Assembly (NCBI GenBank): GCA_003507395.1
Contig: DNVW01000016.1
Coordinates: 12,726 to 76,725, forward strand
Length of the DNA: 64,000 bases
DNA from: Clostridiales bacterium
Lineage (GTDB): Bacteria > Bacillota > Clostridia > TANB77 > CAG-508
Reading direction: 5' to 3'
Made by a program: the position numbers and the translations under genes. The first letter of the stretch is position 1; the number at the start of each line of letters is the position of its first letter. This document shows positions 6,584 through 41,892 of the stretch, in pieces. The notes under the pieces are model-generated. The model saw nothing but the letters and a program-made list of their open reading frames with translations, did not search any database and had not been told where the DNA came from.

Positions 6584-6593
6584 GGAGATAATT

Positions 6594-23718: not shown

Positions 23719-23815
23719 ATTTTTACTCATCTTTTCTTACACCTTCAGGCTTTTTCAAATTTCGTATCTTTGTCCCGACATTGTCGGGAGATATTTTCTA
23801 TTCAATTATTTATTA

Positions 23816-24121: not shown

Positions 24122-24123
24122 CT

Positions 24124-24152
24124 ATTGACATTATTTCTTTAAAATTATATAA
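24124..24152 (+). promoter_or_regulatory. Consensus sigma-A promoter (TTGACA-17-TATAAT)
   Basis: Seen directly in the sequence. It abuts the truncated integrase and points toward the 24291 gene. Confidence 0.55.
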
Positions 24153-24290
24153 TATAGATATAGTTATAAGATACTTGATACATCTTATTGAAATAGTATA
24201 GAGACTTAGTTGTTACAACTATATATAACATATTATTATAAAAGTCAAGTAGTTTTCTAAAATTTTATAAGATTTTTTATGAGGTGTGAA

Positions 24291-25226: not shown

Positions 25227-25250
25227 ATTAAAATTATTTGGAGGTTGAAA

Positions 25251-26246
25251 ATGGAAATTAATTATCCACCATATAAAATTACTAATAAAATGTTAAACTA
25301 TGTATCAGATATAATGAAAAAAATTGGAGAAACAAATTATTTTGAAAATTTAAATAGATATCCAGAATTAAGAAGAAAATCAAGAATTAAATCAATTCAT
25401 TCTTCACTTGCTATTGAAAATAATCAATTATCATTATTTCAGGTTGAAGATGTAATAAATGGAAAACCAGTAATTGGAGAACAAAAAGATATACAAGAAG
25501 TAAAAAATGCTTATGAAGCTTATGAACAAATTGATAAAGTAAATCCATATTCTGTAGATGATTTAAAGAAAATACACGGAATATTAACTTTCTTAATTGA
25601 AAAAGATGCTGGTAAATTTAGAAATCATGGCGAAGCAGTTTATGATGGAGATATACAAATATTTATGGCTCCTCCTTACAAAATGGTTCCTACATTAATA
25701 GATAACTTATTTAACTGGATGAATGAAGTTAAAAACACAATAAATCCACTTATTTTATCGTCTATATTCCATTATGAATTTGTTTTCATACATCCTTTTC
25801 ATGATGGAAATGGTAGAACAGCAAGGATATGGCAAACTGCAATCTTATCACATTGGGAAAAAGCATTTACCTACTTACCTATTGAAAGTATGATTAGAAA
25901 AAATCAAGAAGAATATTATAAAGCTATTCAAAATTGTAACAATGCAGGAGAATCAACAGAATTTATAGAGTTTATGTTAAAAATTATTGATGACACAATA
26001 GATGAATTGATGAACTCAAAAGAAATGAGAGATAAAGCTCAATTACTACTTTCTGATAATGAAATGAAAATAATTGAATGTATTAAAAGAAATGTTTTAA
26101 TAGGTGCAAAAGAAATAATTAAAGAAACTAATATTGCTGATAGAACAGTAAGAAGAATTTTAAAAAAATTACTAGATAATAATACCATTGAAACAATTGG
26201 AAAAGGTGAAAAGGACCCTAATAAAAAATATAAAATTATTGAATAA
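25251..26246 (+). CDS. Fic-family protein with a C-terminal winged-helix DNA-binding domain
   Basis: Fic motif HPFHDGNGRTARIW. The C-terminus is wHTH-like (IIECIKRNVLIGAKEIIKETNIADRTVRRILKKL). Confidence 0.75.
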   Translation: MEINYPPYKITNKMLNYVSDIMKKIGETNYFENLNRYPELRRKSRIKSIHSSLAIENNQLSLFQVEDVINGKPVIGEQKDIQEVKNAYEAYEQIDKVNPYSVDDLKKIHGILTFLIEKDAGKFRNHGEAVYDGDIQIFMAPPYKMVPTLIDNLFNWMNEVKNTINPLILSSIFHYEFVFIHPFHDGNGRTARIWQTAILSHWEKAFTYLPIESMIRKNQEEYYKAIQNCNNAGESTEFIEFMLKIIDDTIDELMNSKEMRDKAQLLLSDNEMKIIECIKRNVLIGAKEIIKETNIADRTVRRILKKLLDNNTIETIGKGEKDPNKKYKIIE

Positions 26247-26260
26247 TGGCATAGTACTGA

Positions 26261-26458
26261 CATAGTAATGGCAGAGTTAAAAGTTATTTTTACAACTTCC
26301 CGACCATTTTTGATGAGTATATATTAGAAAATGGTCATGTAGACTTAAATCATTTCATTCGTTTTTATGAAGAAAATAAATCTAAGTATATTATCATTGA
26401 TGAATATAATACTGAATTTACTCTAGATGAGTTCTTAAGGGAAGTAAATTTAAAATAA
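26261..26458 (+). pseudogene. Start-less C-terminal ORF fragment beginning at the TAATGGCAGAG junction
   Basis: A 65-codon open frame (...YFYNFPTIFDEYILENGHVDLNHFIRFYEENKSKYIIIDEYNTEFTLDEFLREVNLK*) has no Met and a stop immediately upstream. Confidence 0.35.
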
Positions 26459-26483
26459 ATGTAATTTATAAAGAGGTTTAAAA

Positions 26484-26747
26484 ATGGAATTAAAAGATTT
26501 AGAAAAAGAAATTGAAAATATTAAAACTAGAAATAAAAAAGTTGAATTAGATAAAAAATGGGAAACGAGCTTAACTAGAAAAATATGTATTTGTATATTA
26601 ACATATATAGTTGTAATTGTCTATTCATACATAGTAAGAAATTACTCTAATATACTTTTAAGCTCACTTGTCCCTGTTATTGGTTTTACATTGTCAACAT
26701 TATCATTAAAATACATAAGAAAAATATGGGAGAAGAATATAAAATAA
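26484..26747 (+). CDS. Small two-TM membrane protein, hypothetical
   Basis: Hydrophobic segments are present. No motif was found. Confidence 0.3.
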   Translation: MELKDLEKEIENIKTRNKKVELDKKWETSLTRKICICILTYIVVIVYSYIVRNYSNILLSSLVPVIGFTLSTLSLKYIRKIWEKNIK

Positions 26748-26769
26748 ATATATTTAAGAGGTATATAAA

Positions 26770-27294
26770 ATGTTATATGTAATTAGACATGGACAAGTTG
26801 ATACAAATATAAAAAATCAGGTTAATGGCTGGAACGAGGAAAAACTTAATTCAGTAGGAATACAACAAGCTATAAATGCAGGTAATCAGCTTAAAAATAT
26901 AAAAATCGATGTAGTATTTTGTTCACCATTATTGAGAACAAAACAAACCTACAATAATTTAAATATAAAAGACATTCCAATTTTTTATGACGATAGGATA
27001 AAAGAAAGGAATTCTAATAGTATGGTTTATGCTGATGTAGAAACATTAGATAATAATATTTGGTATGATGGAACAAAAAATATTATATATAAAGATTCTG
27101 AAGGATTTAAGAGTATAATAAATAGAACTGAATCAATATTAAATGATATAAAAAATAATTATAAAGACAAAAATGTATTAATAGTCACTCACGGAGATGT
27201 TTGTAAAGCTGTTTATTTATATTTCAATCCAAATACCCAAGACATTAGTAAATTCCAACAAAATAATTGTGAAATAGTTTGTTATAAATTTTAG
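26770..27294 (+). CDS. Histidine phosphatase family protein (phosphoglycerate mutase-like)
   Basis: N-terminal catalytic RHG motif (LYVIRHGQVDTN) and the THGDV second His motif. Confidence 0.65.
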   Translation: MLYVIRHGQVDTNIKNQVNGWNEEKLNSVGIQQAINAGNQLKNIKIDVVFCSPLLRTKQTYNNLNIKDIPIFYDDRIKERNSNSMVYADVETLDNNIWYDGTKNIIYKDSEGFKSIINRTESILNDIKNNYKDKNVLIVTHGDVCKAVYLYFNPNTQDISKFQQNNCEIVCYKF

Positions 27295-27302
27295 GGGTGT
27301 TT

Positions 27303-27962
27303 ATGGGTAAAAAAAAGAATATAATTTATACAATTTTTATTATGGTATTTTCAATTATATGTGGAATAATATCAAAAGATTATTTTTTAGGAACTATAAT
27401 ACTTGCGAGTGGACTTCTTAATTCTTACTATGCAAGTGTTGGCAAAATATATAATTACATATTCGGAGCAGTTTATTGTGCTTTAAGTGGTTATGTTTGT
27501 TTGAAAACAGGTTTATATGGAATAGCCATTTTATCTTTTGCAGTTTATTTTCCATCACAAATACATGGGTATTTTAGTTGGAAAAATAAAAAGAATGAAA
27601 ATAAGGAAGTTAAAGTTAGAGGTTTTACTTTAAAAAACTCAATAATAATTATTTCTTCTTGTATTATTGGAAGTTTATTATTAGGGCTATTATTAAGTAA
27701 AATACCAACTCAACAATTAGTCTTTTTAGATTCTAGCAGCAATATTTTAAATCTATGTGGCATAATCCTTATGAATTTAAGATTTAAAGAATGCTGGGCT
27801 GTATGGTTATTTAATAATACTGTTGATTTAATAATCTGGGTTGTTAATTATATGAATAATACAGTAAATAGTACAATGATGTTATTAGTTTCAATTGGTT
27901 ATTTATTAATAAATATATATGGTTTAATAAAATGGTATAAAAAAAGTGGGTATGAAATATGA
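27303..27962 (+). CDS. pnuC: PnuC-like nicotinamide riboside transporter
   Basis: A ~220-aa polytopic protein with a terminal W..Y..K-rich tail. It lies adjacent to a nicotinamidase-like gene. The assignment is by similarity of topology and sequence feel, not a strict motif. Confidence 0.5.
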   Translation: MGKKKNIIYTIFIMVFSIICGIISKDYFLGTIILASGLLNSYYASVGKIYNYIFGAVYCALSGYVCLKTGLYGIAILSFAVYFPSQIHGYFSWKNKKNENKEVKVRGFTLKNSIIIISSCIIGSLLLGLLLSKIPTQQLVFLDSSSNILNLCGIILMNLRFKECWAVWLFNNTVDLIIWVVNYMNNTVNSTMMLLVSIGYLLINIYGLIKWYKKSGYEI

Positions 27963-28273
27963 AATATTGTATGATTGAAGTTGCCTTTGGAATTAAGAAA
28001 GAAGCAAATAAAGCAGTTGATGAATTATTAAATAAAAGATTAGTTGCAAGTTGTCAAATATTAGAAAGTAATAGCATTTGGAATTGGAAACAAAAACGAG
28101 AACAAAGCAAAGAATATATAGTTTTAATGAAAACACAGTTTTATTTACAGAATAAAATATACAATGTAATTAAAAATATACATAGTTATGAGTGTTTTGA
28201 GTTCGCTGTTTTTGAATTAAGCAGTTGTAATGAAGATTATTTAAATTGGATAGAATCAGAAACAAATAAATAA
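27959..28273 (+). CDS. cutA: CutA1-like divalent-cation tolerance protein
   Basis: VASCQIL...IWNWKQ...EYIVLMKTQ...IHSYECFEF...YLNWIESET matches the CutA signature pattern. Confidence 0.6.
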   Translation: MKYCMIEVAFGIKKEANKAVDELLNKRLVASCQILESNSIWNWKQKREQSKEYIVLMKTQFYLQNKIYNVIKNIHSYECFEFAVFELSSCNEDYLNWIESETNK

Positions 28274-28289
28274 TTGAGGAGAATAATAA

Positions 28290-28772
28290 ATGAATAGATT
28301 ATTATTAGTAATAGATGTTCAAAATGATTTTATAAATGAGCATACAAAAAATATTTTAACAAAAATAAAAGAATTAGTGGATTCAAATAAATATGATTTA
28401 ACTGCTTTTACTAGATTTATCAATGATGAAAATAGCATTTGGTATAAAAAATTAAATTATAAAGGCTGTATGACTAAAGAAGGACAAGCAATTGCTATTA
28501 ATACTAAAAACAATAAAGTATTTGATAAAAACATATATACTGCAGTAAATGATGAATTGAAAAAATATATTCAAAAAAATAATATTTCTAAAATATATTT
28601 ATGTGGCTTTGATACAGATGCTTGTGTTCAAAAAACTGCTATTGATTTATTTGAACAAAACTATGATGTATATGTTTTAAAAGATTATTGCATGAGCCAT
28701 TTAGGTAAGGAAACTCATGATTTTCATATAAATAATCTTGCAAGATTAATAGGAAAAGATAGAATTATTTAA
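28290..28772 (+). CDS. Isochorismatase-family hydrolase (nicotinamidase PncA-like)
   Basis: LLVIDVQNDF and the catalytic Cys context CGFDTDACV are present. Confidence 0.7.
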   Translation: MNRLLLVIDVQNDFINEHTKNILTKIKELVDSNKYDLTAFTRFINDENSIWYKKLNYKGCMTKEGQAIAINTKNNKVFDKNIYTAVNDELKKYIQKNNISKIYLCGFDTDACVQKTAIDLFEQNYDVYVLKDYCMSHLGKETHDFHINNLARLIGKDRII

Positions 28773-28773
28773 G

Positions 28774-28796
28774 CACTTCAAATTGAAGTGTTTTTT
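28774..28796 (+). terminator. Terminator (cacttcaa-a-ttgaagtg followed by a T6 run)
   Basis: It belongs to the same CTTCNNATTGAAG palindrome family as 2860 and 4901. Confidence 0.6.
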
Positions 28797-28830
28797 AGTT
28801 TAGATCTTCACATAATAGGAAAAGCTGAAT

Positions 28831-28859
28831 TTGCAAAAATTCACATAATGTGGTATAAT
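28831..28859 (+). promoter_or_regulatory. Consensus promoter TTGCAA-17-TGgTATAAT (extended -10)
   Basis: Seen directly in the sequence. It drives the GC-rich ORF. Confidence 0.55.
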
Positions 28860-28936
28860 TATATTGTATCACGTAAGTGAACATATCAAAAGTCCCTAAA
28901 TGGGCAATGCTTGCAATGCAAGCAAAAGGAGTCAGC

Positions 28937-29599
28937 ATGAGTAACGAAATCGCTAACAACGCATCCTTCATCTTTGCAGGTAAGAAGCCGAAATTCTTAA
29001 ATCTCGTGTACATTTCTTGTGAAGGCGACATTCAGAAACTTCCTGAAGATGTTCGGACTGCAGTTTCGCTGGAACCAGGAGGAGCAATCCGCGTAGAATC
29101 CAGAGAATATGCAAATGGAGAATTGATTCCCCTTCCTGCATACATCGCTTGGGAAAAGGAGGACAAGGACAAAGAAAGATGTCCTCATGGTTGGAATCTT
29201 TGGAACAAGGCGAATGCTTCCGCACAGCTTTCCGAAGGATTCCTCGAAGAAGTTGATGGTAAATTCCGTCAGACGAAGATAGTGCCCCTTAAAGCACAAC
29301 TCTTCACTGGTGAAATTCCCGAAATCTTTCTCGAGATGCCCCGTTTTGATGGGCAGGTAACCGTTGAAAACGGAAATCTGTTTATCAAGACTCCGTGGGG
29401 GATTTCCAATTGTAAAGCTGGTAACGGTTTTGCAATTGTATATGGTTTGGGAAATGACGCTGAAAAGCCTAAATTCTTCGGAATGCTTGATGGGAATATT
29501 CTTACCGTTGGAACAGCTTCGTTTGAAGATTACTACCACGTCACGGAGGATGGCAAGGTGATCGAAACTCTTCGCGAGTATTTTGAGAGCCTGCATTAA
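28937..29599 (+). CDS. Hypothetical protein encoded by a GC-rich (foreign-composition) cassette
   Basis: G+C and codon usage (GGC, CGC, CTG) are strikingly higher than the surroundings. The RBS is aaaggag. A long antisense ORF is typical of GC-rich DNA. No family was recognised. Confidence 0.5.
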   Translation: MSNEIANNASFIFAGKKPKFLNLVYISCEGDIQKLPEDVRTAVSLEPGGAIRVESREYANGELIPLPAYIAWEKEDKDKERCPHGWNLWNKANASAQLSEGFLEEVDGKFRQTKIVPLKAQLFTGEIPEIFLEMPRFDGQVTVENGNLFIKTPWGISNCKAGNGFAIVYGLGNDAEKPKFFGMLDGNILTVGTASFEDYYHVTEDGKVIETLREYFESLH

Positions 29600-29654
29600 A
29601 CCCCCAAATAGTCAACTGTGACTTGAGAAGATAGCTATCAACTCTAAAAACAGC

Positions 29655-29697
29655 CAAGAGCCAAGTCGTATACAAACGCTAGGCTCTTGTTTTATTT
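29655..29697 (+). terminator. Terminator (caagagcc ... ggctcttg followed by a T-run)
   Basis: An 8-bp stem and a T-tract at the end of the GC-rich block. Confidence 0.55.
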
Positions 29698-29746
29698 ATA
29701 TTTTAAGTCAGATTTAAACTTCTTTCAGATATAAAGTTAAATAATA

Positions 29747-29844
29747 TGCCAATAGGGACGGGGAATTTTGGCACAAAAATATTTTAATTTAACAAAAAGC
29801 GAGTGAAAATGAAATTTCACTCGTTCTGGTGCAGATGGACTTAA
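29747..29844. repeat. ~98-bp att-proximal repeat B (attR arm). It has the same two hairpins as repeat A and ends in a tRNA-Leu 3' core copy, tggtgcagatgg (29827-29838).
   Basis: The 12-bp core is identical to tRNA-Leu 3' end 41805-41816. Confidence 0.7.
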
Positions 29845-29978: not shown

Positions 29979-31427
29979 TTATTTTAATTTTAAATATTCT
30001 TCTTCAAATCTTTCAAAGTTTTCTTCTAATATAGTATTTGTATCTTGCATATACTTTGTGTATTTTTGATTTAATTCCTTTTGTCTTAAATATGAGTAAA
30101 TATATCCATAAGTGTTTATAGTTGTAGTAATGTCTGCATGACCTAGAATTTTTTGTAATACTTCAATAGCAATTCCAGATTCTATACATCTTGTTGCAAA
30201 AGTATGCCTTAGCATATGAGTATGTGTATCACTTGATTTATAATTAACATAGTGTATTCCTTTTTTCTTACTAACTTTTTTATGTTTTAATGTTATAACT
30301 CTAAGTCCTGCATTTTTACATATTATTTTAAATGCTGAATTAACTTGTCCATCAGTATAAAAGTTGCCACTAGGTTTAGAAAATAATACATCATATTTAT
30401 TTTCTTTGTATTGTTCTAATGCTTTTTGTATCACTGGTACTGCTAAAGGTGTAAGATCTATTGTTCTTAATCCATTTTTAGTTTTAGTTATATCTCCAAT
30501 TACAACTTTATTGTTTATATCTTTTGTCAATGTTCTTCTAACATTAATGCTTCCAATATTTCCTACAATATTTATATCACTAGGTCTTAATGCAAGTATT
30601 TCTCCTATTCTCATTCCAGTATATAAAGCAATTAGTAATATTAGCTTATATTTTGATTTATGAGTTTTTAGATATTCTGTTAAAACATATTCTTCTTTTC
30701 TGGTAAAAGCATCAACCTTTTTATCTTCTTTAAAACTCTCTGGCTTTTTAATTCCCTCTCCAATTAAAAATGGATTTTTTTGAATAATACCATTTGCATA
30801 AGCAATAGAAAAAGCATTTTTAATTTTACTATAATATTTGTCTATTGAAGAATTAGATTTTGCTCGTTCACTTTCTAAATATTGTTTTATCTGGTTAGCT
30901 GTAACATTCTGTATTGGAATATTTGCGAATTTATAATTTCCAATTGCTTTTATAGTTTGCATATGCCTATTATAAGTGTTTGGTTTAATTTCCTTGTTTC
31001 TTACTCTTTTGGTTTCGTATGATTCACATATTGAAACAATAGTTGCATCTTTCTCTTTAGTTTTCTCAGTTTTCCCATGAATAGAAACATCTTGGATATA
31101 TTCAAGCATTTTATTTAAGGCTTCTTCTTTTGTTTTTCCATTAAATTGCATCCTATTTGTATCTTTTGTTGTGGATTTTCTGCCATTTGTTAAAAGCTCT
31201 ACTTTGAATTTGGGATAAATATAGAATTTATCGCAATGTTCTTTATCTTTACAATTATTGCAATCTTCACATTCTTTCATTTTGAATAGCTTTTTTCTAT
31301 TAGCACAAAATTCTTTGTGATTACAATTACTACAAGTAGGGCATATTGGTCTATCATTGGCTTTTCTTTTATCTTTAGTAGTATACTCGTGTACAGAATA
31401 GTCTTTGCCTTCAACTAAAGTTTTCAA
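29979..31427 (-). CDS. int: Tyrosine-type site-specific integrase with a Cys-rich N-terminal extension
   Basis: R..HxxR..Y catalytic region ([10 protein letters not shown] ... TINTYGYIY) and multiple CxxC motifs at the N-terminus. Confidence 0.85.
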   Translation of the reverse strand: MKTLVEGKDYSVHEYTTKDKRKANDRPICPTCSNCNHKEFCANRKKLFKMKECEDCNNCKDKEHCDKFYIYPKFKVELLTNGRKSTTKDTNRMQFNGKTKEEALNKMLEYIQDVSIHGKTEKTKEKDATIVSICESYETKRVRNKEIKPNTYNRHMQTIKAIGNYKFANIPIQNVTANQIKQYLESERAKSNSSIDKYYSKIKNAFSIAYANGIIQKNPFLIGEGIKKPESFKEDKKVDAFTRKEEYVLTEYLKTHKSKYKLILLIALYTGMRIGEILALRPSDINIVGNIGSINVRRTLTKDINNKVVIGDITKTKNGLRTIDLTPLAVPVIQKALEQYKENKYDVLFSKPSGNFYTDGQVNSAFKIICKNAGLRVITLKHKKVSKKKGIHYVNYKSSDTHTHMLRHTFATRCIESGIAIEVLQKILGHADITTTINTYGYIYSYLRQKELNQKYTKYMQDTNTILEENFERFEEEYLKLK

Positions 31428-31580: not shown

Positions 31581-31796
31581 TTATCTTAATGTTATAGATT
31601 TTGAATAGTCGTGTCTTTCCTTTAGAAATTCTTTAAAAGCATCTGCTTCAATCCACCAACTTCTACCAACTCTTTGAGCAGGGAATTCATTATTGTTAAA
31701 TAATTCTAGTCCTTTCTTTGGACCAATTTTTAACAACTGGCATACATCTTTTAAAGAATATACTTTCATTCCAGCAAGTTCTTGCATAAATATCAC
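31581..31796 (-). CDS. xis: Excisionase-family HTH DNA-binding protein
   Basis: KVYSLKDVCQLLKIGPKKGLELFNNNEFPAQRVGRSWWI matches the excisionase/MerR-like HTH pattern (RxWRI). Confidence 0.55.
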   Translation of the reverse strand: MIFMQELAGMKVYSLKDVCQLLKIGPKKGLELFNNNEFPAQRVGRSWWIEADAFKEFLKERHDYSKSITLR

Positions 31797-32548: not shown

Positions 32549-33481
32549 ATGATTAAGGAAAAGAATCCCAATTATAAAGGGCTTTGGGCTAAATATAAAA
32601 AATATGAAATTTTAAAAATAAATAATGAATACTATATTAGACCAGATAAAAAAGCTTCTTATGAAATCTATGATGTGTTTGATAAAGAAAAAGAACTTCT
32701 TGTAGATTTTCTTTTAATTGGTAGAGAAGCTATGAATTATGCAGATATAAATGATGCTAATTGTGATTTAATGTCTACAGAAACTAAATATCAAGATATG
32801 ATTTTAGATTTTGTAAATAAATATGGTATGTTTGGAGAACTTACATATAGATTATTAAATACTCACATAATTTCATCTGGTAAAGCACTAACTCAAGGAT
32901 ATTCTAATATTGATGAAGTGTCTGCTAGTACATATATAAAACCATATTTTATTGGTAATGAAGATATACAAAGAATAGATTTCGATCATGGAGTTAATGA
33001 AGATATATTAAAATATGTATATGGCTCTGATAATCCAAATGGAGATTTATTAAATAGCTTTGATAAAGGCGAAGATTTTAGTATTGTATTTTCTAAATGC
33101 TATACTGAAAAAATAGCTAATATTTTAGTAATGGCTAGAGCTTTATATAGAATATTTAATTCAGTAGAAAATAGCTCTTGGACTGAAAATGAAGATAAAA
33201 AAGCAATATATCAAAAATATGCAAATATGTTTAACCCTAACAATGTAGCATTTAATTTTGATTTTGCAGATGAAAAAACATTTTTAAATTGGAATTTCAA
33301 TTCTCTATTCCAAGCTATTGAGCTAATACTTGCTTTTAATGAAACAAATGAAAGAAAAGAAGTTAAAATGTGTAAACATTGTTTTAAACCATTTATTGCA
33401 AAAAATTTAAATAGTGATTATGATACAGCAAGTTGTAGAAATGTAGCAAATGTTTATAGAAGCAGAGCAAAAAATAAATAA
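32549..33481 (+). CDS. Hypothetical Zn-ribbon protein (paralog of 24291-25226)
   Basis: It is homologous throughout to the element A protein. The RBS is aggggg. Confidence 0.45.
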   Translation: MIKEKNPNYKGLWAKYKKYEILKINNEYYIRPDKKASYEIYDVFDKEKELLVDFLLIGREAMNYADINDANCDLMSTETKYQDMILDFVNKYGMFGELTYRLLNTHIISSGKALTQGYSNIDEVSASTYIKPYFIGNEDIQRIDFDHGVNEDILKYVYGSDNPNGDLLNSFDKGEDFSIVFSKCYTEKIANILVMARALYRIFNSVENSSWTENEDKKAIYQKYANMFNPNNVAFNFDFADEKTFLNWNFNSLFQAIELILAFNETNERKEVKMCKHCFKPFIAKNLNSDYDTASCRNVANVYRSRAKNK

Positions 33482-33719: not shown

Positions 33720-34226
33720 TTGAATATAAATGATGAATTAAACAAACTAAATACAAACCAACAACAAGAATTAGAAAAATGGTTTGCTGAACAAATATTT
33801 AAATTAAATAAAGTAAATAAAAATGAACAACTAAACTATGTGCCATATGTTACTAGAAAACAAGTTGTATGGGTGGATTTTGGAGTAAATGTTGGTCAGG
33901 AATTAAATCATTCACACCCTGCTGTTGTACTTTATTCAAGGCCAAATGTTGGTACAGTTCTTGTTGCTCCACTAACAAGTAAATCCAACACATCTGATGT
34001 TGTTATTGATATTGGAGAAATAGAAAATTTTGAAGGGTTTTCATATTGTAAGATAGACCAATTACGAGCAGTAAGTAAATTAAGAATACAAACTAAAAAG
34101 CATGAAAATAAGTACTATAATAACTACAATAGAGAAACTGGAGAATATTCTAATCCAGAATTATCTACAGAACAAATGAATTTAATAGATAAAGCTATAC
34201 AAGAATTGAAATTTAAATCGAAATAA
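33720..34226 (+). CDS. PemK/MazF-like toxin-fold protein with a ~50-aa N-terminal extension (TTG start)
   Basis: VVWVDFGVNVGQELNHSHPAVVLYSRPNVGTVLVAPLTSK resembles the MazF/PemK core. There is a strong aggagg RBS 8 nt before the TTG. Confidence 0.5.
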   Translation: MNINDELNKLNTNQQQELEKWFAEQIFKLNKVNKNEQLNYVPYVTRKQVVWVDFGVNVGQELNHSHPAVVLYSRPNVGTVLVAPLTSKSNTSDVVIDIGEIENFEGFSYCKIDQLRAVSKLRIQTKKHENKYYNNYNRETGEYSNPELSTEQMNLIDKAIQELKFKSK

Positions 34227-34347
34227 ATAATGGCAAAGTTTTGGCAGAGTAATGGCAGAGCTTTATCTTACTGCTTAGATAAAAAAGCAGTAAGTTTAGC
34301 AGTATGAAATGACAAAGTATAATTCATTAAAGGAAAGGAAGTTTTTA

Positions 34348-34821
34348 ATGGAGAATATAGTAATTAGAAAAGCAATTTTGGAAGATGTTAGCTACATCCA
34401 AAATTTAAATAACGAATTATTTAAATTGGAAAAAGAAAACTATGACACAACTTTAGTTTTGAACTGGGCTTTAACAGAAGAAGGCAAAGATTATTTCGAA
34501 GATTTAATCAAAAATCAATATGTCATAGTCGCAACATTAGAAGATAAAATTATTGGTTATCTAGCAGGTTCAATAAATGAAAAAGGTAGTTATGAAGAAA
34601 TACAATATGGTGAAATTAATAATATGTTTATAAAAGAAGATTACAGACTATATGGCATTGGCAAAAAACTAATAAATAATTTTAAAAATTATTGCAGAAA
34701 TAATAATATCAGCAATTTAAAAGTGGTTGCAAGTTCAAAAAACAAAAATGCAATAGAGTTTTATAGAAAAAATGGATTTGATGATTTTAATTTAACTTTA
34801 ACTATGAATATTGGAGATTAA
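34348..34821 (+). CDS. GNAT-family N-acetyltransferase
   Basis: Acetyl-CoA binding motif (RLYGIGKKLINNF) and GNAT fold length. Confidence 0.7.
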   Translation: MENIVIRKAILEDVSYIQNLNNELFKLEKENYDTTLVLNWALTEEGKDYFEDLIKNQYVIVATLEDKIIGYLAGSINEKGSYEEIQYGEINNMFIKEDYRLYGIGKKLINNFKNYCRNNNISNLKVVASSKNKNAIEFYRKNGFDDFNLTLTMNIGD

Positions 34822-34824
34822 GAT

Positions 34825-35622
34825 ATGGATGGATTTTATGTAGGAGATATAATTGGCAATTCATATACTCACGAAAATGAGAAATATAACTTAAAAACAA
34901 AGGATTTTGAACTATTTACAAATAGAAGTAAATTTTCAGATGATACTATTCTATCTTTTGCAACTATATATTGGCTATTGCATACACATCATGAATCTAC
35001 TGAAATGATAACAGTTTTAAAAAAATTTTACGAAGAATACCCAGATAAAATTCCAACTATCTATGGAGAATCATTTGTAAATTGGATTACAAGTGTAAAA
35101 GATGAATACAGAAAATCGTCTGGAAACGGTGGTGCAATGAGGTCTTCTGTTATCGGATGGTATGCTAAAGATATAGAAGAACTTAAAAAATTAGTATATA
35201 AAGCAATTATGCCTACTCATAACGAAGAAGGAGCAATTAAAGCATCCGAAATCGTTGCCATTTCTATATTTCTATTTAAAAATAATTATACTAAAGATGC
35301 AGTATTGAATTATATTGAAAGTAATTATAATTATGATTTACATGAAAATATAAATTCATATAAAAACTATTACACATATACATCAGATGCAAAAGAAACT
35401 GTAAGACCTGCGTTAATTGCTTTCTTTAACTCGACTGACTATGAAGATAGTATTAGAAATGCGGTATCTTTTGGTGGAGATACAGATACTATTACTACAA
35501 TAAATTCATCAATAGCAGAAGCATATTATAAAGAGATACCTAAAAATATTTTAGAAAAAGCAATAAAATACTTACCAAGAGAATTCATTAATATATTAAA
35601 TGAATTCAAAAAATATATATGA
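34825..35622 (+). CDS. ADP-ribosylglycohydrolase (ARH/DraG family)
   Basis: FSDDT, GNGGAMR and GGDTDT metal-binding motifs. Confidence 0.75.
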   Translation: MDGFYVGDIIGNSYTHENEKYNLKTKDFELFTNRSKFSDDTILSFATIYWLLHTHHESTEMITVLKKFYEEYPDKIPTIYGESFVNWITSVKDEYRKSSGNGGAMRSSVIGWYAKDIEELKKLVYKAIMPTHNEEGAIKASEIVAISIFLFKNNYTKDAVLNYIESNYNYDLHENINSYKNYYTYTSDAKETVRPALIAFFNSTDYEDSIRNAVSFGGDTDTITTINSSIAEAYYKEIPKNILEKAIKYLPREFINILNEFKKYI

Positions 35623-35644
35623 TAAAAAATGTTAAAAGGATTTT

Positions 35645-37051
35645 ATGAATATGGAAGAATTGAAACAAATAATTGATAATAAATGTGTAGAATTTAAAGG
35701 GTTAAAAATATATACTGGATGGTTTTATGATTTTGCAGAGATGCTTTTACAACAAGGGTATACTCAAGAACAAATAAGTAATATATTAGAGCAGATAATG
35801 AGTACTGATTGTATGGAAAATATGAGTGGAAAAGGTATGATGAAGTATTTTGGAAACGTACAACCTGCTATTGATAATGAAAAAGCCTTTTTTGATTATA
35901 TAAAAAGCAAATTAGATATACAAAATCCAGAATACCTTGAAAGTGGATTACAATATGCATCACAAGAAACTAAAAATGTAGGAAATTTTATTGATGCTTT
36001 TATAAAATATGTTGTAATAACCAATTTCGAAGATTTGCAACTTCAATATAAAGACCAAACAACAGAACATTGGGAGCAAATGCTTGTTAGTTGTTGTTTG
36101 GGAAATTTTAGTTTAAGTACTATGCTATGTGAAGCCGAATCAGATAAAATATATTTTGATGAACTTCATACTAGAAAAAATTTAACAGGTACTAGAATTG
36201 GTGCTGTTTTATTTAAAAAATTAATGGAAAAAATACACAATGAATTCCCTGACAGAGATTTATATACATTAAGATTAAAAAAAGATAATGAAGGTGCTAA
36301 AAGATTTTATGAAAGAATGGGTGGAACAGTATATGACTATGGAGATGAATCACAATTTGGTGTAGTCTATAAAAAAGAAGATATGGAAGAATTATTTAAA
36401 AAAGAGGTCGTTCCTCCTACTTTATATCCTACTAAAAAAGAAGAATTTTTAAATAGTTTAAAAGTTAACATTACTAATAAAGAACCAGATCCATTTCCAT
36501 CAGATGAAGATATTATTGAAAAAATGGATATTAATGATAAGTTTTATAGTTTTGACATGGATGATATTGATAAAAAAATAAAGATTCCAAAGCTAGCCAA
36601 AAATGGAGAACAGTTATATTTATATCGTAGAAGTATAAGAAATAGACAATTAGGCTCTAGTAATTCTAGAATAGATTCACAATATTTTATTTTAAATAAT
36701 TCTGGACAAATTGTTGGCAGAGTTCCTGTTTCAGTTTTAGAGCCTTATTCATTAAGTATGGATTATTGGATACGAGATGAATTTCAAGGACAAGGCATTG
36801 GGACTGTGGTTTTAGAAGAAATAGTAAAACAAATTTACGATGGAAAAGAATTCGATGGAATAGACTGTATATCAGCTAAATTTCCAGAAGCAAATAAAAC
36901 ATCAATACAAAATATTAAATTAGAAATATCAGACGATAACGAAGCTAGTATTAAAATTGCTTCAAAAAATGGATTCAAAAAAGCAGGTGAACGATATTAT
37001 TCACTAACTTTAAATAACTTTCTTGAAAGAAATCAAGAAAGAGCCAAATAA
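35645..37051 (+). CDS. Protein with two GNAT-like acetyltransferase domains plus an uncharacterised N-terminal region
   Basis: Two acetyl-CoA motifs are present: LTGTRIGAVLFKKLMEK and FQGQGIGTVVLEEIVKQ. Confidence 0.5.
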   Translation: MNMEELKQIIDNKCVEFKGLKIYTGWFYDFAEMLLQQGYTQEQISNILEQIMSTDCMENMSGKGMMKYFGNVQPAIDNEKAFFDYIKSKLDIQNPEYLESGLQYASQETKNVGNFIDAFIKYVVITNFEDLQLQYKDQTTEHWEQMLVSCCLGNFSLSTMLCEAESDKIYFDELHTRKNLTGTRIGAVLFKKLMEKIHNEFPDRDLYTLRLKKDNEGAKRFYERMGGTVYDYGDESQFGVVYKKEDMEELFKKEVVPPTLYPTKKEEFLNSLKVNITNKEPDPFPSDEDIIEKMDINDKFYSFDMDDIDKKIKIPKLAKNGEQLYLYRRSIRNRQLGSSNSRIDSQYFILNNSGQIVGRVPVSVLEPYSLSMDYWIRDEFQGQGIGTVVLEEIVKQIYDGKEFDGIDCISAKFPEANKTSIQNIKLEISDDNEASIKIASKNGFKKAGERYYSLTLNNFLERNQERAK

Positions 37052-37078
37052 ATAACTGTATTTATTCGGCTCTTTTTC
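37040..37078. terminator. Bidirectional terminator (agagccaaataaata ... tatttattcggctct)
   Basis: A 15-bp stem with one mismatch, followed by a T-run. Confidence 0.6.
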
Positions 37079-37079
37079 T

Positions 37080-37859
37080 CTAATATCCGCCATCAATTGT
37101 AAGAACTTCTCCATTAATATAAGTTGATTCTTCGCTAGATAAAAAATAGATTGTATTGGCTATTTCGCTTGGTGTAGCAAATCTGTTTAGGAATATTTTC
37201 TTATTTTCTTCTTCAATATATTCTTTTGGTAAATCTTTATTCATATCTGTATCTGCCCATCCAATAGCTATAGCATTTACTCTTATATTTGGTTTGAATT
37301 GAAATGCCAAATCCCTTGTTAAACTCTGCAATCCAACCTTGGAAATATTGTAGTCAATAGATTCTGGTGCAATAACCTTTGTTCCATTTGTTGATGATAC
37401 ATTAATAATTGAACTTCCTTTTTTCATATATTTAGAAACTTCTCTAGATACAATAAATGCACCTAAAACATTTACTCTAATTGTATTCTCAAATTCAGAT
37501 ACTGTTGCTTTATAAATATCTCTATCAAAAACTATACCTGCACAATTCACAAGTACATCTATTTTTCCAAATCTATCTATAATCTTTTTTATACCACTTA
37601 TTATTTCTGCTTCGTTTGAAACATCCATTTCTACAATCATTGTCTGAATTCCATATTGCTTTTCAACATATTCTTTTAACTTTTTAGCATCTTCTTCATT
37701 GTTAAATTCAAAATCGCCATCAACAAATTTAAGTTTTGCCTCTTTTTCACTAGATATATAATTTATAACTACATTATAACCTTTTTTTGCAAATTCAATA
37801 ATTGTTGCTCTACCAATTCCTCTTGAACTACCTGTAACTAAAACTACTTTATTTTCCAT
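37080..37859 (-). CDS. Short-chain dehydrogenase/reductase (SDR) family oxidoreductase
   Basis: TGSSRGIG Rossmann motif, the NCAG motif and the YxxxK catalytic site. Confidence 0.8.
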   Translation of the reverse strand: MENKVVLVTGSSRGIGRATIIEFAKKGYNVVINYISSEKEAKLKFVDGDFEFNNEEDAKKLKEYVEKQYGIQTMIVEMDVSNEAEIISGIKKIIDRFGKIDVLVNCAGIVFDRDIYKATVSEFENTIRVNVLGAFIVSREVSKYMKKGSSIINVSSTNGTKVIAPESIDYNISKVGLQSLTRDLAFQFKPNIRVNAIAIGWADTDMNKDLPKEYIEEENKKIFLNRFATPSEIANTIYFLSSEESTYINGEVLTIDGGY

Positions 37860-37882
37860 GTTTTCACTTCTTTCTAATACTT

Positions 37883-38413
37883 CTAATTAATTTTTTTCAT
37901 ATATAATCTTCTTAAAAATCCATTTGATAGTTTTGTTTCCTTTACAAACTCTAGTCCTATTTTTTCCAATGTTTTACAACTTGCTACATTATCAGGATGT
38001 GCCATTGAAATAATATAGTCAAAATTTAATTCTTTTGCAAGATTCATTTCAAGTGTTTGTAATTTAGTAGTAATTCCTAATCCTCTATATTCTGGCAATA
38101 CTAAATTTCCACCTAATTCACATACTTTGTACTCAGTTAAATCAAATTCCTTTTTAAAATCTTCTAACATATCTTGTGAAACATATAATTGTGCCATTCC
38201 TACAAGTTTATTACCATCATAAGCTCCATATAATGGTGCATAGTTTACTTCATCAAACATACTATCTAATTCCCATTGTTCATATGGAATAAAATGATTT
38301 TGGTCTGGTAATCCACTTAATACTATATCTATAAGTTTAAATAACTGCTCTTTGTCTTTTTCTTCAATCTTTTTATATGTTAATTCCATAAAATTGATCT
38401 CCTTTATAATCAA
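37883..38413 (-). CDS. GNAT-family N-acetyltransferase
   Basis: EYRGLGITTKLQTLE acetyl-CoA motif. Confidence 0.7.
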   Translation of the reverse strand: MIIKEINFMELTYKKIEEKDKEQLFKLIDIVLSGLPDQNHFIPYEQWELDSMFDEVNYAPLYGAYDGNKLVGMAQLYVSQDMLEDFKKEFDLTEYKVCELGGNLVLPEYRGLGITTKLQTLEMNLAKELNFDYIISMAHPDNVASCKTLEKIGLEFVKETKLSNGFLRRLYMKKIN

Positions 38414-38488
38414 AATAATTATGACTATATATTACCATTTTTTACTCTTTTTATCAAGTAACTGAGAAATACAATTACTAAAAAAATA

Positions 38489-39778
38489 TTATCTACCTCT
38501 CGATTTATCTTTTTTCTTATCTTTAACAATTTCTTTTGATTTTTCAATTTTAAGTTGATTTTTAAGCAGAATGGTTCTATTTTCAATTTCATAGCAGCCC
38601 ACGATATCTTTATTGGTTTTATTAATTAAAGCCTTTAAATTGGCAATTTCGTGTGTAATTTTCCCTTTGATTTCAGGATTTGTTTCTCTTTTTCTTTTTC
38701 TCCATAGATTTTCTCTTTTGCCTTTTAAATTTCGTACTTTCTCCTCTAAATTGAATCTATAAGATTTAAGTTCTTCTAAGTTATTAATTTTATTTTCAGA
38801 TAGTAAAATGGTTTGCTTACTTAAACTTTCTAAATGTTTTAAAGATATTTTCATTTCTTTTGTAATTGGTACTCTATAGTTTCCAATTTCAATTTTTTCA
38901 GGGAGTGGGTCAATTCTTAATAATATGCATATTAGAATATATAATGCAGGAAGTTCTCGTAATTGATGCTCTCTTTGTTTTTGCTTAAATTTATTATATT
39001 CTTCAATACTCATTTTATATTTTTTCTTTGGAATATAAACTTGACTATAAGTTTTATTTTCAATTCTATATCGTATCTTTTCTTTAGTATAATTATCTCC
39101 AAATAATTCTTGTGGTCTTACAACTTGGTAACTATTATCTCTTTCAATAATAATTCCTGTATCTTCATTTTCTGAAACATAATAGCCTTTTGCTTCTAGC
39201 TTTGATACAAACCCCTTATATGAATATGAAATAGCAATTGCATCATCTATATCTTTTTTTACTAATTGCATATATGGATTATTTTTAGCATACAGCTTAT
39301 AATAGCCTTTATTCTTCCACGGAGTTTTTATAACGCTTAATCCATTTTCTCTGCATATAAAATCAGATGTTATTCTTATAAAGTCTTTTGTTTCTCTATT
39401 ACTATAAAACTTATACCCACTTTTAAAAGAAACAGAATTTATAACAATATGGTTGTGTACATTATCTGTATTTAGATGTGTTGCAACTACAAATTGAAAG
39501 TCATCTCCAAACAGTTCTTTAGCATATTGTAATCCTAGCTCGTGGCATTTCTTTGGAGATATTTCTTTTCCATCAAATGATTGTATTAAATGGTAAGATA
39601 TTATTCCATCTTCTTTATCAAATCTTTTCTTTGTATCTTGCATTTCGTAAATTGCAGTGTCTGGTCTGCAATTTACACCAGACACATACATCATCTTTTC
39701 AGTTTTCTCGCCATTCATAATATACTTAATTATTGTGTTTAATCTTGTTTTTCTAGTCAAAAATTTTGTGACCGCCAT
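38489..39778 (-). CDS. MobA/VirD2-type relaxase (mobilization nuclease)
   Basis: HLNTDNVHNHIVINS histidine triad. The probable start is MAVTKF... at 39778. The longer track ORF adds 18 unlikely residues. Confidence 0.75.
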   Translation of the reverse strand: MAVTKFLTRKTRLNTIIKYIMNGEKTEKMMYVSGVNCRPDTAIYEMQDTKKRFDKEDGIISYHLIQSFDGKEISPKKCHELGLQYAKELFGDDFQFVVATHLNTDNVHNHIVINSVSFKSGYKFYSNRETKDFIRITSDFICRENGLSVIKTPWKNKGYYKLYAKNNPYMQLVKKDIDDAIAISYSYKGFVSKLEAKGYYVSENEDTGIIIERDNSYQVVRPQELFGDNYTKEKIRYRIENKTYSQVYIPKKKYKMSIEEYNKFKQKQREHQLRELPALYILICILLRIDPLPEKIEIGNYRVPITKEMKISLKHLESLSKQTILLSENKINNLEELKSYRFNLEEKVRNLKGKRENLWRKRKRETNPEIKGKITHEIANLKALINKTNKDIVGCYEIENRTILLKNQLKIEKSKEIVKDKKKDKSRGR

Positions 39779-40118
39779 AGTAAACTCCACCTTCTTTCTT
39801 GGTTGGGGTAAGGTAGAAGTTTTGTAAATCATCTATCATGTCATTAACTTTATTAGCAAGTGGATAATATTTATTATCATCAACATACTGATATGTGTTA
39901 GCTACTCTTGCAAGTTGATTTATATTTATTGCAATACCTCTTAAATCATTTAGTATTTTATAAAAGTTTTCATCAGGTTTTTCTTTTATTTGAGTATCAT
40001 TAATGACATGTCTAAAAAAAGCAGATTCTGATAAACCTGCTTTCAAACATTTCTTTTTTAGTAATTCATTTTCTCTACTATTAAGCCATACTTGTTTTTT
40101 TATTGATCTTGTTCGCAT
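39753..40118 (-). CDS. mobC: MobC-like relaxosome accessory protein (ribbon-helix-helix)
   Basis: RTRSIKKQVWLNSRENELLKKKCLKAGLSESAFFRHVI matches the MobC pattern. Its stop overlaps the relaxase start. Confidence 0.65.
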   Translation of the reverse strand: MRTRSIKKQVWLNSRENELLKKKCLKAGLSESAFFRHVINDTQIKEKPDENFYKILNDLRGIAININQLARVANTYQYVDDNKYYPLANKVNDMIDDLQNFYLTPTKKEGGVYYGGHKIFD

Positions 40119-40284: not shown

Positions 40285-40635
40285 TTACTTTAAAATGCCC
40301 ATATTTTTGAAATAAAAGTAAGCCTCATTGCCACCTAAAAAGAACAATTCTTTTGCTTCAATTTCCTTCATATTGTAAAATATTTGTACCAATTTAGATA
40401 ACATTTTACATTCATAATTGTTCAGATTTCTTCCTTCATTTTGTCCTTCTAAAACCCAATTTAAATTTTTATTTTTTCTTAATAATTCATAATATTGTTC
40501 TTGTAATTGTTTGTATTTTTCATTTTTATTTTTCAAATTTCCAATAATATCTTCTAAATATTCTTCAAACATATCTTCATATTCTTTATAAAAACTTTTG
40601 ATTTCACTCATAACATTTACCTCACTTTTAATCAT
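40285..40635 (-). CDS. Hypothetical protein (element B backbone)
   Basis: An intact ORF with no recognisable motif. Confidence 0.3.
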   Translation of the reverse strand: MIKSEVNVMSEIKSFYKEYEDMFEEYLEDIIGNLKNKNEKYKQLQEQYYELLRKNKNLNWVLEGQNEGRNLNNYECKMLSKLVQIFYNMKEIEAKELFFLGGNEAYFYFKNMGILK

Positions 40636-40679
40636 GAATTAGTTCTTTTAGTACAATTTCTTCAGCTCTATTTTTTATA

Positions 40680-41039
40680 TTATTCATCTTTCCGTACCCA
40701 TTCTAGTTGGTTATTAGCCTTTAATTCTTCAGTAACATTTTCCTTTTTAGCTAATTCTTTTATAATAGCATTTACTCTTTCTGTAGCTGTTATATCTATA
40801 TCCATTAAATGCTTTTGTAGTTTATTTTCCATTTGTAAAATCATATATTCAGCTTTCTTATTAGTCTTTAAATAGTTAAGTCTTAACCTTCCATATTTAC
40901 CTAATTTAAAATTTTTAATATTACTTGGTGCTACTATATTTGGTATATAATAATCTCCTTGTAATACATACTCAATACCAGTTTTACTATCTACAAATTT
41001 TTCTTTTAGATTTCCATTTTCATCATATCTTTCATCCAT
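40680..41039 (-). CDS. Hypothetical protein (element B backbone)
   Basis: An intact ORF with no recognisable motif. Confidence 0.3.
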   Translation of the reverse strand: MDERYDENGNLKEKFVDSKTGIEYVLQGDYYIPNIVAPSNIKNFKLGKYGRLRLNYLKTNKKAEYMILQMENKLQKHLMDIDITATERVNAIIKELAKKENVTEELKANNQLEWVRKDE

Positions 41040-41053
41040 TTTATAAATCCTCC

Positions 41054-41605
41054 TTAATCTACAAAATTAGCATATAAGCTATTTAAAAATTCTTTTGTAT
41101 ATTGCCTTTGTTCATAATTGCAATAATTTTTATTAGTTATATTAGTATTTTTATTATTAGTATAGTTAGGACGTAAATTCTCCGATTCATGAGTCGTAGA
41201 ATTTACGCTTCGTGAGTCGGAATTTTTACGAGTCAGATTATCGAATTTTTCATCGTGTACCATTTGGGCAGGGTATAAAAGTTTTGGTTTAGCTTTTCCT
41301 TGACTTTTTTCTAATAATAATTTTGCATCTACTAATTCTTTAAATGTTTTTGTACAAGTTTTATCTGAAATATGCAGTATGCTTTGTATTTCTTTTCTAG
41401 TAAATATTAAATAAATATTTCCGTTTTTATCTACCCAATTATTCTTAATAGATAGAGTTAGCCTGTCTAATAAAATACCATAAAGAAGTATTGCAGCAGG
41501 AGATAAAGAAATATATCTCTCATTTACAAAAAGTTCTTTTGGTATCATATAAAATTTGTATTGATAAATATCTTTTTGATTTATAAATTTAAAATCTTTT
41601 TCCAT
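41054..41605 (-). CDS. RepA_N-family replication initiator (N-terminal wHTH)
   Basis: FYMIPKELFVNERYISLSPAAILLYGILLDR is typical of Firmicute RepA_N initiators. Confidence 0.65.
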   Translation of the reverse strand: MEKDFKFINQKDIYQYKFYMIPKELFVNERYISLSPAAILLYGILLDRLTLSIKNNWVDKNGNIYLIFTRKEIQSILHISDKTCTKTFKELVDAKLLLEKSQGKAKPKLLYPAQMVHDEKFDNLTRKNSDSRSVNSTTHESENLRPNYTNNKNTNITNKNYCNYEQRQYTKEFLNSLYANFVD

Positions 41606-41804: not shown

Positions 41805-41892
41805 TGGTGCAGATGGCCGGAATCGAACCGGCACGGTTTATTCAACCGCAGGATTTTAAGTCCTGTGCGTCTACCAGTTCCGCCACATCTGC
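41805..41892 (-). tRNA. tRNA-Leu (anticodon UAA) with a long variable arm and encoded CCA
   Basis: The reverse complement reads GCAGATGTGGCGGAACTGGTAGACGCACAGGACTTAAAATCCTGCGGTTGAATAAACCGTGCCGGTTCGATTCCGGCCATCTGCACCA. It has a 7-bp acceptor stem and a T-arm GGTTCGATTCC. Confidence 0.85.

Follow-up and report, generated by a model that had tools for sequence, protein, structure and literature searches.

What is the function of an ADP-ribosylglycohydrolase (ARH) gene that lies packed between acetyltransferase genes on a small mobile element? The question is raised by an operon at positions 34,348 to 37,051 of a 64,000-nucleotide stretch of DNA from a Clostridiales bacterium (contig DNVW01000016.1 of assembly GCA_003507395.1; the whole stretch is hereafter called the window), which encodes, in this order, an acetyltransferase of the GNAT superfamily (GNAT1, 157 aa), an ARH of 265 aa and a protein of 468 aa that contains two GNAT domains. 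A first-pass annotation had proposed that the cluster is mobile cargo, serving either as an immunity or antidote set against ADP-ribosylating toxins or as an antibiotic-modification cassette. Our analysis leads to the verdict that the cargo is real, functional and under purifying selection, and that its enzymes come from known families and include one with a rare two-GNAT architecture. As to its role, we favour, with a probability of roughly 0.38, a protective operon in which the ARH would act as an orphan immunity protein of the Imm-ARG/Tri1 type against incoming ADP-ribosyltransferase (ART) toxins.

The three genes run in one direction and are tightly packed, with intergenic gaps of 3 nt between GNAT1 and ARH and of 22 nt between ARH and the 468-aa gene. 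All open reading frames (ORFs) coincide exactly with those of the first-pass annotation, and the arrangement it described, with the ARH gene between acetyltransferase genes and a short-chain dehydrogenase/reductase (SDR) gene and another GNAT gene (GNAT3) converging on the operon from downstream, is confirmed by these ORFs and by the domain matches (Table 1). For GNAT1 the start at 34348 is preferred over that of a longer ORF beginning at 34309, because of the ribosome-binding site AGGAAAGGAAG and the promoter-like site upstream. The 468-aa protein likely starts at its second methionine (position 35651), where its homologs begin. Between variants of the mobile element the dN/dS ratios of all five cargo genes, including those for the SDR and GNAT3, are 0.08–0.19, which corresponds to purifying selection. 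The closest relative of GNAT1 with a solved structure is PaiA, a spermidine/spermine N-acetyltransferase; a sequence search of the Protein Data Bank (PDB) with GNAT3 gave no match.

The ARH matches PF03747 over residues 6–239 (E=6e-22, 79.1 bits against a cut-off of 26.2) and contains the complete set of metal-site motifs that had been noticed earlier, consisting of E17, S38-D39-D40, T131-H132, which represents the T-H motif defined for ARH enzymes (PMC9503650), and D219-x-D221-T222. In an alignment of 24 homologs, with a mean column identity of 59%, the residues E17, D39-D40-T41, T131 and G217-G218-D219-x-D221-T222 are invariant, and at least 90% of the sequences retain S38 and H132. Alignment of the family profile with PDB sequences places S38-D39-D40 on T76-D77-D78 of ARH3, and the GGDTDT segment on D314, D316 and T317 of the same enzyme. 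The segment GDIIGNSYTHE resembles GDCVGSFYE, which we take to be the ARH3 segment holding the catalytic Glu41. The AlphaFold2 (AF2) model is all-alpha and has a pLDDT of 91.5; Foldseek superimposes it on MJ1187 and ARH3 (PDB entries 1t5j and 6g1q) with TM scores of 0.73–0.75 and E-values of about 1e-7. Given the conserved metal site and the confident all-alpha model resembling MJ1187 and ARH3, the protein is very probably active, and it is predicted to be a Mg/Mn-dependent hydrolase of ADP-ribosyl glycosidic bonds.

Among PDB sequences the ARH is best matched by Lmo0067, at E=1e-8 when it is searched as a single sequence and at 2e-17 when the family profile is used; Lmo0067 comes from entry 8za7, entitled 'ART-ARH type toxin effector-immunity protein pair of Listeria monocytogenes'. 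The immunity role of Lmo0067 is taken from this title; a full-text literature search for the protein gave no match. The locus tag of lmo0067 is numerically adjacent to that of lmo0066, a gene at the toxin position of a type VII secretion system (T7SS) (PMC5417603), and comparative genomics has established ARG proteins as enzymatic immunity to ART toxins of the R-S-E type, including those secreted by T7SS (PMC3482391). As in the Tre1-Tri1 pair of Serratia (6dre) and the Lmo0066-Lmo0067 pair of Listeria, the hydrolase has an ARH fold and an intact binuclear metal site; the host of the window gene is a Firmicute, a member of a group with T7SS ART toxins. Unlike the immunity proteins of these pairs, which comprise 332–366 aa, the window ARH has 265 aa and a truncated N-terminus, has no ART toxin gene next to it and belongs to a family that evolves slowly and is mostly chromosomal; it is about 21% identical to Lmo0067 and about 15% to Tri1. 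Ting et al. (2018) reportedly found that orphan Tri1 homologs protect against non-cognate toxins.

With the family profile, MJ1187 and ARH3 score nearly as well (E=1e-16) as Lmo0067, and Tri1 and DraG score much worse. MJ1187 and ARH3, which hydrolyse O-glycosidic bonds, are the best structural matches and share with the window protein the S/T-D-D, D-x-D-T and T-H motifs and the N-terminal glutamate; the window ARH differs from them in being bacterial, 60–80 residues shorter and 17–21% identical. An assignment as DraG was rejected: the TIGR02662 score is 28.6 bits against a cut-off of 337, and there are no draT or nif genes nearby.

The two-GNAT protein is as unusual as the first-pass annotation held it to be: its full-length family comprises 14 clusters among 5.8 billion proteins, and an exhaustive HMMER scan of 1.84 billion representatives yields 52 relatives of its N-terminal module. 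This N-module (residue 1 to about 255) consists of a helical extension of ~125 aa followed by a divergent beta/alpha GNAT core (residues ~130–245). The C-module (residues about 265–468, with the domain at ~290–460) is a GNAT of the RimJ/RimL type, matching PF13302 and PF00583 with E-values of about 1e-9. Membership of the GNAT superfamily is evident from Pfam for GNAT1, GNAT3 and the C-module, and from the family profile and motifs for the N-module: the family alignment displays the acyl-CoA-binding GNAT motifs A and B (R..L....G..L and N..A..FY.K.G), the profile finds Naa50 (E=3e-9) along with numerous further GNATs among PDB sequences, and PF00583 is matched by 17 of the 31 members. The domain searches thereby uphold the GNAT assignments just as they do that of the ARH. 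In the AF2 model the N-module has a pLDDT of about 80–89 and the C-module one of 40–55; since confidence in the C-module is low, the fold matches are used merely as support for the designation GNAT. Residues 265–466 are 60–66% identical to the C-termini of three proteins with unrelated N-termini, a GH10-like domain in one (P0010) and other domains in the remaining two (P0011 and P0012). The fusion of the GH10-like domain of P0010 to a near-identical copy of the C-module indicates recent domain shuffling.

Besides stand-alone N-modules, there are tandem copies (P0135), a fusion with an Acetyltransf_3 domain in the reverse order (P0143) and N-modules within three giant proteins; in mid-length proteins no additional recognisable domain is found. 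Two of the three giants carry R-S-E-type ART domains. P0141 (1949 aa) is encoded just downstream of genes for DUF4176 and an EssC-like FtsK/FHA ATPase, and its PF03496 ART domain, at about residues 1440–1610, directly adjoins the N-module on the N-terminal side. In P0145 (3445 aa) an ART domain of the same family (E=7e-21), at about residues 2160–2360, follows about 240 residues after the N-module. The gene before that of the third giant, P0144 (2780 aa), gives a faint WXG100 match, and a homolog of the C-module is also present in P0144 itself. A region with a ParB-like GRHR motif is common to P0141 and P0144. The giant genes, with products of 1949–3445 aa, lie at L046:10001-15850 (P0141), L045:1321-9663 and L047:652-10989, the one at L045 following the faint-WXG100 gene; between them the giants also contain a RimL-like GNAT and a duplicated block with an HD motif, and most of their length has no Pfam match. 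The pairing of GNAT and ART domains is already described for polyvalent conflict proteins of phages and conjugative elements (Iyer et al. 2017, PMC5512222), and the N-module recalls them by its position beside PF03496 in P0141 and P0145, by the ParB-like GRHR-motif regions and by its resemblance to protein acetyltransferases of the RimI/Naa type. In contrast to those proteins, the giants stand in T7SS-type loci (EssC-like, DUF4176, faint WXG100) instead of phage-head or T4SS contexts, and the window protein is a cytoplasmic two-GNAT protein of 468 aa that is not polyvalent.

All five genes are cargo of an integrative mobilizable element (IME) of ~12 kb inserted at a tRNA-Leu gene, so that the location on an IME stated in the first-pass annotation is confirmed. 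The element encodes a tyrosine integrase, an excisionase-like protein, a relaxase and a MobC-like protein, contains no genes of a type IV secretion system (T4SS), and is bounded by a 12-bp direct repeat, TGGTGCAGATGG, one copy of which is the 3' end of the tRNA gene. Backbone genes were assigned by Pfam matches of window ORFs or of syntenic genes of L001, a human-gut metagenome contig that carries the same element at the same chromosomal site with 97% DNA identity over 21 kb. Another copy, 95.6% identical, was found in Clostridium sp. CAG:567 (L023), the closest genome match, and five further near-identical copies come from metagenomes (L050–L054); a metagenome scan with the N-module alignment A3 returned mostly further copies of the same IME. 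An unoccupied tRNA-Leu site was not recovered. In two of the copies (L052 and L054) the five-gene block is kept at 90–96% identity, with merely fragmentary matches to integrase and relaxase. In the plasmid collection the tRNA alone was matched at the DNA level and the 468-aa protein was unmatched at the protein level. A phage origin was rejected because IMG/VR viral contigs contain no relative of the ARH or the 468-aa family; the phage collection likewise gave no match to the N-module.

Some features of the window stand apart from the question of function. Compared with L001, the window shows a sharp recombination breakpoint inside the ARH gene (~35000-35073): there are 2 differences in 5.3 kb between 29.7 and 35.07 kb, and from there rightward, through the relaxase and RepA_N genes to the tRNA, the divergence is 5–10%. 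The minus-strand genes for MobC, relaxase, GNAT3 and SDR (37080-40118) follow one another in the same orientation, with short gaps of 75 and 23 nt, as far as the shared terminator, so that GNAT3 and SDR may be co-transcribed with the mobilisation genes. Positions 28877-29599 form a patch of 38% GC in a genome of 26% GC, with long ORFs on both strands, among them a plus-strand ORF of 240 aa without a Pfam or PADLOC match; an Rfam search of the patch gives no RNA.

A variable slot separates GNAT1 from the conserved 310-aa gene, and in the window it is occupied by a PemK/MazF-like gene. The product of this gene has extensions of ~45 aa at the N-terminus and ~40 aa at the C-terminus, and its N-terminal part matches a PHROG family with the label 'antitoxin MazE-like' (E=4e-17). 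No ORF for a separate antitoxin can be seen, and a hairpin (34268-34296) follows the gene. In four of the metagenomic copies (L050, L051, L052 and L054) the slot contains instead genes for a TIR_2 protein (E=1e-23) and a SLFN_AlbA_2/HATPase_c_4/Fic-like_C protein (both within L050:4533-6656), which may constitute an uncharacterised two-gene defence module; the TIR_2 protein matches PDC-S66, TIR-NLR and ThsB-like models of PADLOC. A decayed sister element, at 23622-29826, is arranged in tandem with the IME and shares its tRNA-Leu att site. Its att copy, CTGGCGCAGATGG, lies within 23622-23718, a segment 97% identical to the attL-proximal sequence. At the relative position of the slot it carries a gene for a Fic protein, followed by His_Phos_1, PnuC-like NMN transporter, CutA1 and isochorismatase-family genes, a group that suggests NAD salvage. 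From the MazF-like, TIR plus Schlafen and SoFic contents of the slot we conclude that this family of elements shuttles conflict genes beside the operon.

Table 1. Features of the operon, of the IME that carries it and of the decayed sister element, in window coordinates.
Feature	Position	Strand	Evidence or remark
Sister element: integrase C-terminal fragment	23816-24121	-	
Sister element: paralog of the 310-aa gene	24279-25226		
Sister element: Fic + wHTH protein	25245-26246		PADLOC SoFic model, E=5e-49; same relative position as the slot
attL core TGGTGCAGATGG	29827-29838	.	Direct repeat, displaced copy of the tRNA-Leu 3' end; alignment of att copies
Tyrosine integrase	29979-31427	-	PF00589, E=3.7e-23
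Excisionase-like (Xis) HTH_17 protein	31581-31796	-	Window ORF; syntenic L001 gene annotated PF12728
310-aa protein, conserved in the IME family	32549-33481	+	Paralog in the decayed sister element (24291-25205, 31% identity); no Pfam or NCBIfam match
PemK/MazF-like toxin-domain protein, 168 aa (variable slot)	33720-34226	+	PF02452, E=1e-12
Promoter-like site TTAGCA-16-TATAAT	34296-34323	+	Upstream of GNAT1; consensus match only
GNAT1, 157-aa acetyltransferase	34348-34821	+	PF00583, E=3.5e-15; PDB 1tiq, E=2e-8
Short-form ARH, 265 aa	34825-35622	+	PF03747, family alignment, profile against PDB, AF2 + Foldseek
468-aa two-GNAT protein	35645-37051	+	ORF; N-module 35645-36409, C-module 36437-37051
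Bidirectional terminator hairpin	37038-37075	.	Strong; between the convergent units, common to the 468-aa gene and the SDR/GNAT3 unit
FabG-like SDR	37080-37859	-	PF13561, E=1.5e-57; PDB 2uvd, E=4e-38
GNAT3, 176-aa acetyltransferase	37883-38413	-	PF00583, E=2e-10; directly downstream of the relaxase gene
MOB relaxase	38489-39832	-	PF03432, E=5e-38
MobC/NikA-like protein	39753-40118	-	PF21983 and PF05713
DUF6664, TnpV-like and RepA_N genes	40285-41605	-	DUF6664 (40285-40635) matches PF20369 directly; TnpV-like and RepA_N by annotation of syntenic L001 genes
tRNA-Leu(UAA)	41805-41892	-	ARAGORN, Rfam; 3' end 41805-41816 is the attR core

The operon is predicted to form a single transcription unit, from the promoter-like site through GNAT1, ARH and the two-GNAT gene to the terminator, and to yield three modification enzymes in the cytoplasm. 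If it is protective, the ARH would strip off the ADP-ribose that incoming R-S-E-type ART toxins place on cell components; such toxins could be T7SS effectors of competing Firmicutes or could come from phages. The GNATs are predicted to be co-transcribed acyl-CoA-dependent acetyltransferases, tied to ADP-ribosylation through domain sharing alone. The host of the IME is an uncultured low-GC gut Clostridium, and the element also shuttles the conflict genes of the adjoining slot. The supports for this antidote reading are several and independent but circumstantial: the kinship of the ARH to Lmo0067, the GNAT modules shared with the ART-bearing giants, the neighbouring defence slot and the retention of the block in decaying elements. 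A comparable setting is provided by the acquired interbacterial defence (AID) islands that, according to Ross et al. (2019), are said to reside on mobile elements of gut Bacteroidales. Like such islands, the IME is a recombinase-bearing mobile element of a gut bacterium with an orphan immunity-like gene; unlike them, it belongs to another phylum, would relate to T7SS instead of the type VI secretion system (T6SS), contains one candidate immunity gene and is known from its sequence alone.

A bolder variant of the protective reading, which we consider quite unlikely, would make GNAT1, the ARH and the two-GNAT protein a mobile three-enzyme counter-toxin system of gut Firmicutes against giant T7SS effectors in which R-S-E ART domains are combined with the same two GNAT modules. 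The ARH would remove the ADP-ribose, and the GNAT modules, which the operon would have in common with the toxins or would have acquired from them, would perform a coupled acetylation step, for example by de-protecting or pre-empting an acetylated ADP-ribose adduct, or by acetylating the toxin or its target.

Several findings weigh against a protective role. A tblastn search of the window with the giant proteins, ART segments included, reveals no ART or T7SS gene, and the ARH gene is flanked by GNAT genes, with no cognate R-S-E ART toxin gene adjoining it. With NF041672, the equivalog model for Tri1, the ARH scores 20.4 bits against a cut-off of 490, and PADLOC-DB v2 gives zero matches for GNAT1, the ARH, the 468-aa protein, the SDR and GNAT3. 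The structure of the ARH is as near to MJ1187 and ARH3 as to Lmo0067, and therefore does not allow the substrate class to be inferred. Homologs of the 468-aa protein with 70% identity (loci L004/L005 and L010–L012) reside on a different mobile element that has no ARH; this small element encodes a Mob_Pre relaxase, an integrase and AAA_25, and the genes next to the 468-aa homolog code for a 211-aa APH-family protein and GH10-like proteins.

The distribution of the ARH family points in the same direction. About 640 homologs, mostly of 265–275 aa and about 55–60% identical, were found in metagenome-assembled genomes (MAGs) of gut Clostridia and Bacilli; they are conserved, chiefly chromosomal genes in unrelated contexts, with no partner toxin seen. 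Among 99 proteins encoded within three genes of 20 ARH loci outside the IME, a Pfam scan places no GNAT family in the 25 most frequent families. This pattern fits a conserved endogenous role better than it fits a fast-evolving immunity gene. In five MAGs of Bacilli (L034–L038) the ARH gene is followed directly by that of an ATP-grasp enzyme of about 397 aa, with a tRNA-U5 methyltransferase gene nearby, a pairing that recalls the linkage of R2K ATP-grasp and ARG proteins described by Burroughs et al. 2015 (PMC4431377). Other homologs adjoin genes for HIT, NUDIX or nucleoside hydrolase proteins or a type I restriction-modification system, and in two MAGs a short-ARH homolog is inserted between dnaK and dnaJ (L032, ARH 758-1555; L039, ARH 6001-6792).

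By inspection, a GNAT gene occupies the position directly upstream of ARH in the IME and in L031/L021 only, and the GNAT of L031/L021 is unrelated. Chromosomal ARH genes of L024, L025 and L015, whose products are 76–81% identical to the IME protein, nevertheless have, in the ~55 bases upstream, a decayed copy of the 3' end of GNAT1 (...NGFD..NLTMNIGD*), a sequence that a 54%-identical GNAT1 homolog in L015 confirms as a native GNAT C-terminus. From this stub it follows that the GNAT1-ARH pair predates the present IME in that subclade, and that the GNAT is dispensable there after the pairing. The antidote proposal of the first-pass annotation is thus plausible by association: kinship to Lmo0067 and module sharing with ART giants speak for it; the lack of an ART in the window, scores more than 10-fold below the Tri1 and DraG cut-offs and a linkage of ARH and GNAT that is not conserved across the ARH family speak against it.

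The alternative that survives best, a serious one at less than even odds, is that there is no joint system at all and that the IME has collected housekeeping-type accessory enzymes from Clostridial chromosomes, each with its own endogenous substrate. The ARH would then clear endogenous ADP-ribose adducts, or the O-acetyl-ADP-ribose (OAADPr) that arises in acetylation cycles linked to sirtuins; polyamines, proteins or metabolites would be the substrates of the GNATs, and the SDR would reduce a carbonyl. ARH3-like enzymes are indeed able to hydrolyse OAADPr (PMC9503650), and no sirtuin family is among the 25 most frequent families in the sampled ARH neighbourhoods, which is a point on the other side. 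Such a collection agrees with the conservation of ARH homologs as single genes of the chromosome, in a wide variety of unrelated contexts and with no enrichment of GNATs, and also with their loose company of NUDIX, HIT, MazG, nucleoside hydrolase and GNAT genes; the closest GNAT1 homolog (54% identity) lies 3.4 kb from a 76%-identical ARH in an island of this kind. In addition, GNAT1 is most like polyamine acetyltransferases of the PaiA type, the 468-aa family has other neighbours elsewhere, and the uniform purifying selection seen in the dN/dS ratios of the five genes lacks any sign of an arms race. Less readily accommodated are the tight spacing of the operon, the retention of the five-gene block in decaying elements and its place next to the defence-gene slot. 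The same holds for the presence of both modules of the 468-aa protein in ART-bearing, T7SS-linked giants, and for the finding that the ARH gene is immediately preceded by different GNAT genes in two independent lineages, the IME clade and L031.

The antibiotic-modification cassette is unlikely. The substrate of one or more GNATs would then be an aminoglycoside, streptothricin or an aminoacyl-nucleotide of the microcin C type, and the ARH is left without a role. GNAT1 and GNAT3 are weakly similar to AAC(6'), AAC(3), Sat and ArsN models, and weak likeness to structures of a putative streptothricin acetyltransferase and of meta-AAC0020 is also seen. All NCBIfam resistance scores, however, are 16–38 bits against cut-offs of 125–400, the best being those for ArsN1a (37.6 bits, cut-off 170) and AAC(6') group E (30.5 bits, cut-off 140), so that this half of the earlier proposal does not hold up. 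RimL/MccE detoxifies processed microcin C, and the C-module is of the corresponding Acetyltransf_3 (RimJ/RimL) type; furthermore, a 70%-identical homolog of the 468-aa protein adjoins an APH-family kinase on another mobile element. The absence of matches in the plasmid collection argues in the opposite direction.

Very improbable is a toxin-antitoxin-like or addiction module, in which a toxic GNAT, for instance an N-module that acetylates aminoacyl-tRNA in the manner of TacT, AtaT or KacT, would be countered by a neighbouring protein and would stabilise the IME. AtaT and KacT are among the fold and profile matches of the 468-aa protein, but Naa50 and protein acetyltransferases of the RimI type outscore the GNAT toxins. 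The N-module is embedded in likely secreted toxins and a MazF-like gene lies immediately upstream of the operon; stand-alone N-module proteins are nevertheless common in the family, the list of window ORFs contains no small RHH/TacA-like antitoxin beside any GNAT, and there is no known way for an ARH to reverse acetylation. A biosynthetic pathway composed of the SDR, GNATs and ARH was given low weight, as SDR and GNAT3 form a separate convergent unit that continues the relaxase operon.

What the locus adds depends in part on which reading applies. The enzyme superfamilies and the concept of orphan immunity of the ARH type are known already; modestly new are the two-GNAT architecture, the GNAT subfamily tied to T7SS ART giants and the defence-carrying IME family in gut Clostridia. 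If the genes were collected without a joint function, the cluster would be ordinary accessory cargo. Whatever its function, it defines a rare, unannotated GNAT subfamily, represented by the N-module, that is found both in IME cargo and in giant proteins, of which two bear ART domains, as well as a compact and well-conserved short-form ARH family of gut Firmicutes. Should the three enzymes prove to act jointly against giant effectors, they would reveal a coupled chemistry of ADP-ribosylation and acetylation in bacterial antagonism and would constitute the first acquired interbacterial-defence cassette for T7SS toxins. If the favoured protective reading is correct, a small mobilizable element would spread enzymatic immunity to ART toxins among gut Clostridia, and acquired interbacterial defence would extend from the T6SS of Bacteroidales to the T7SS of Firmicutes.

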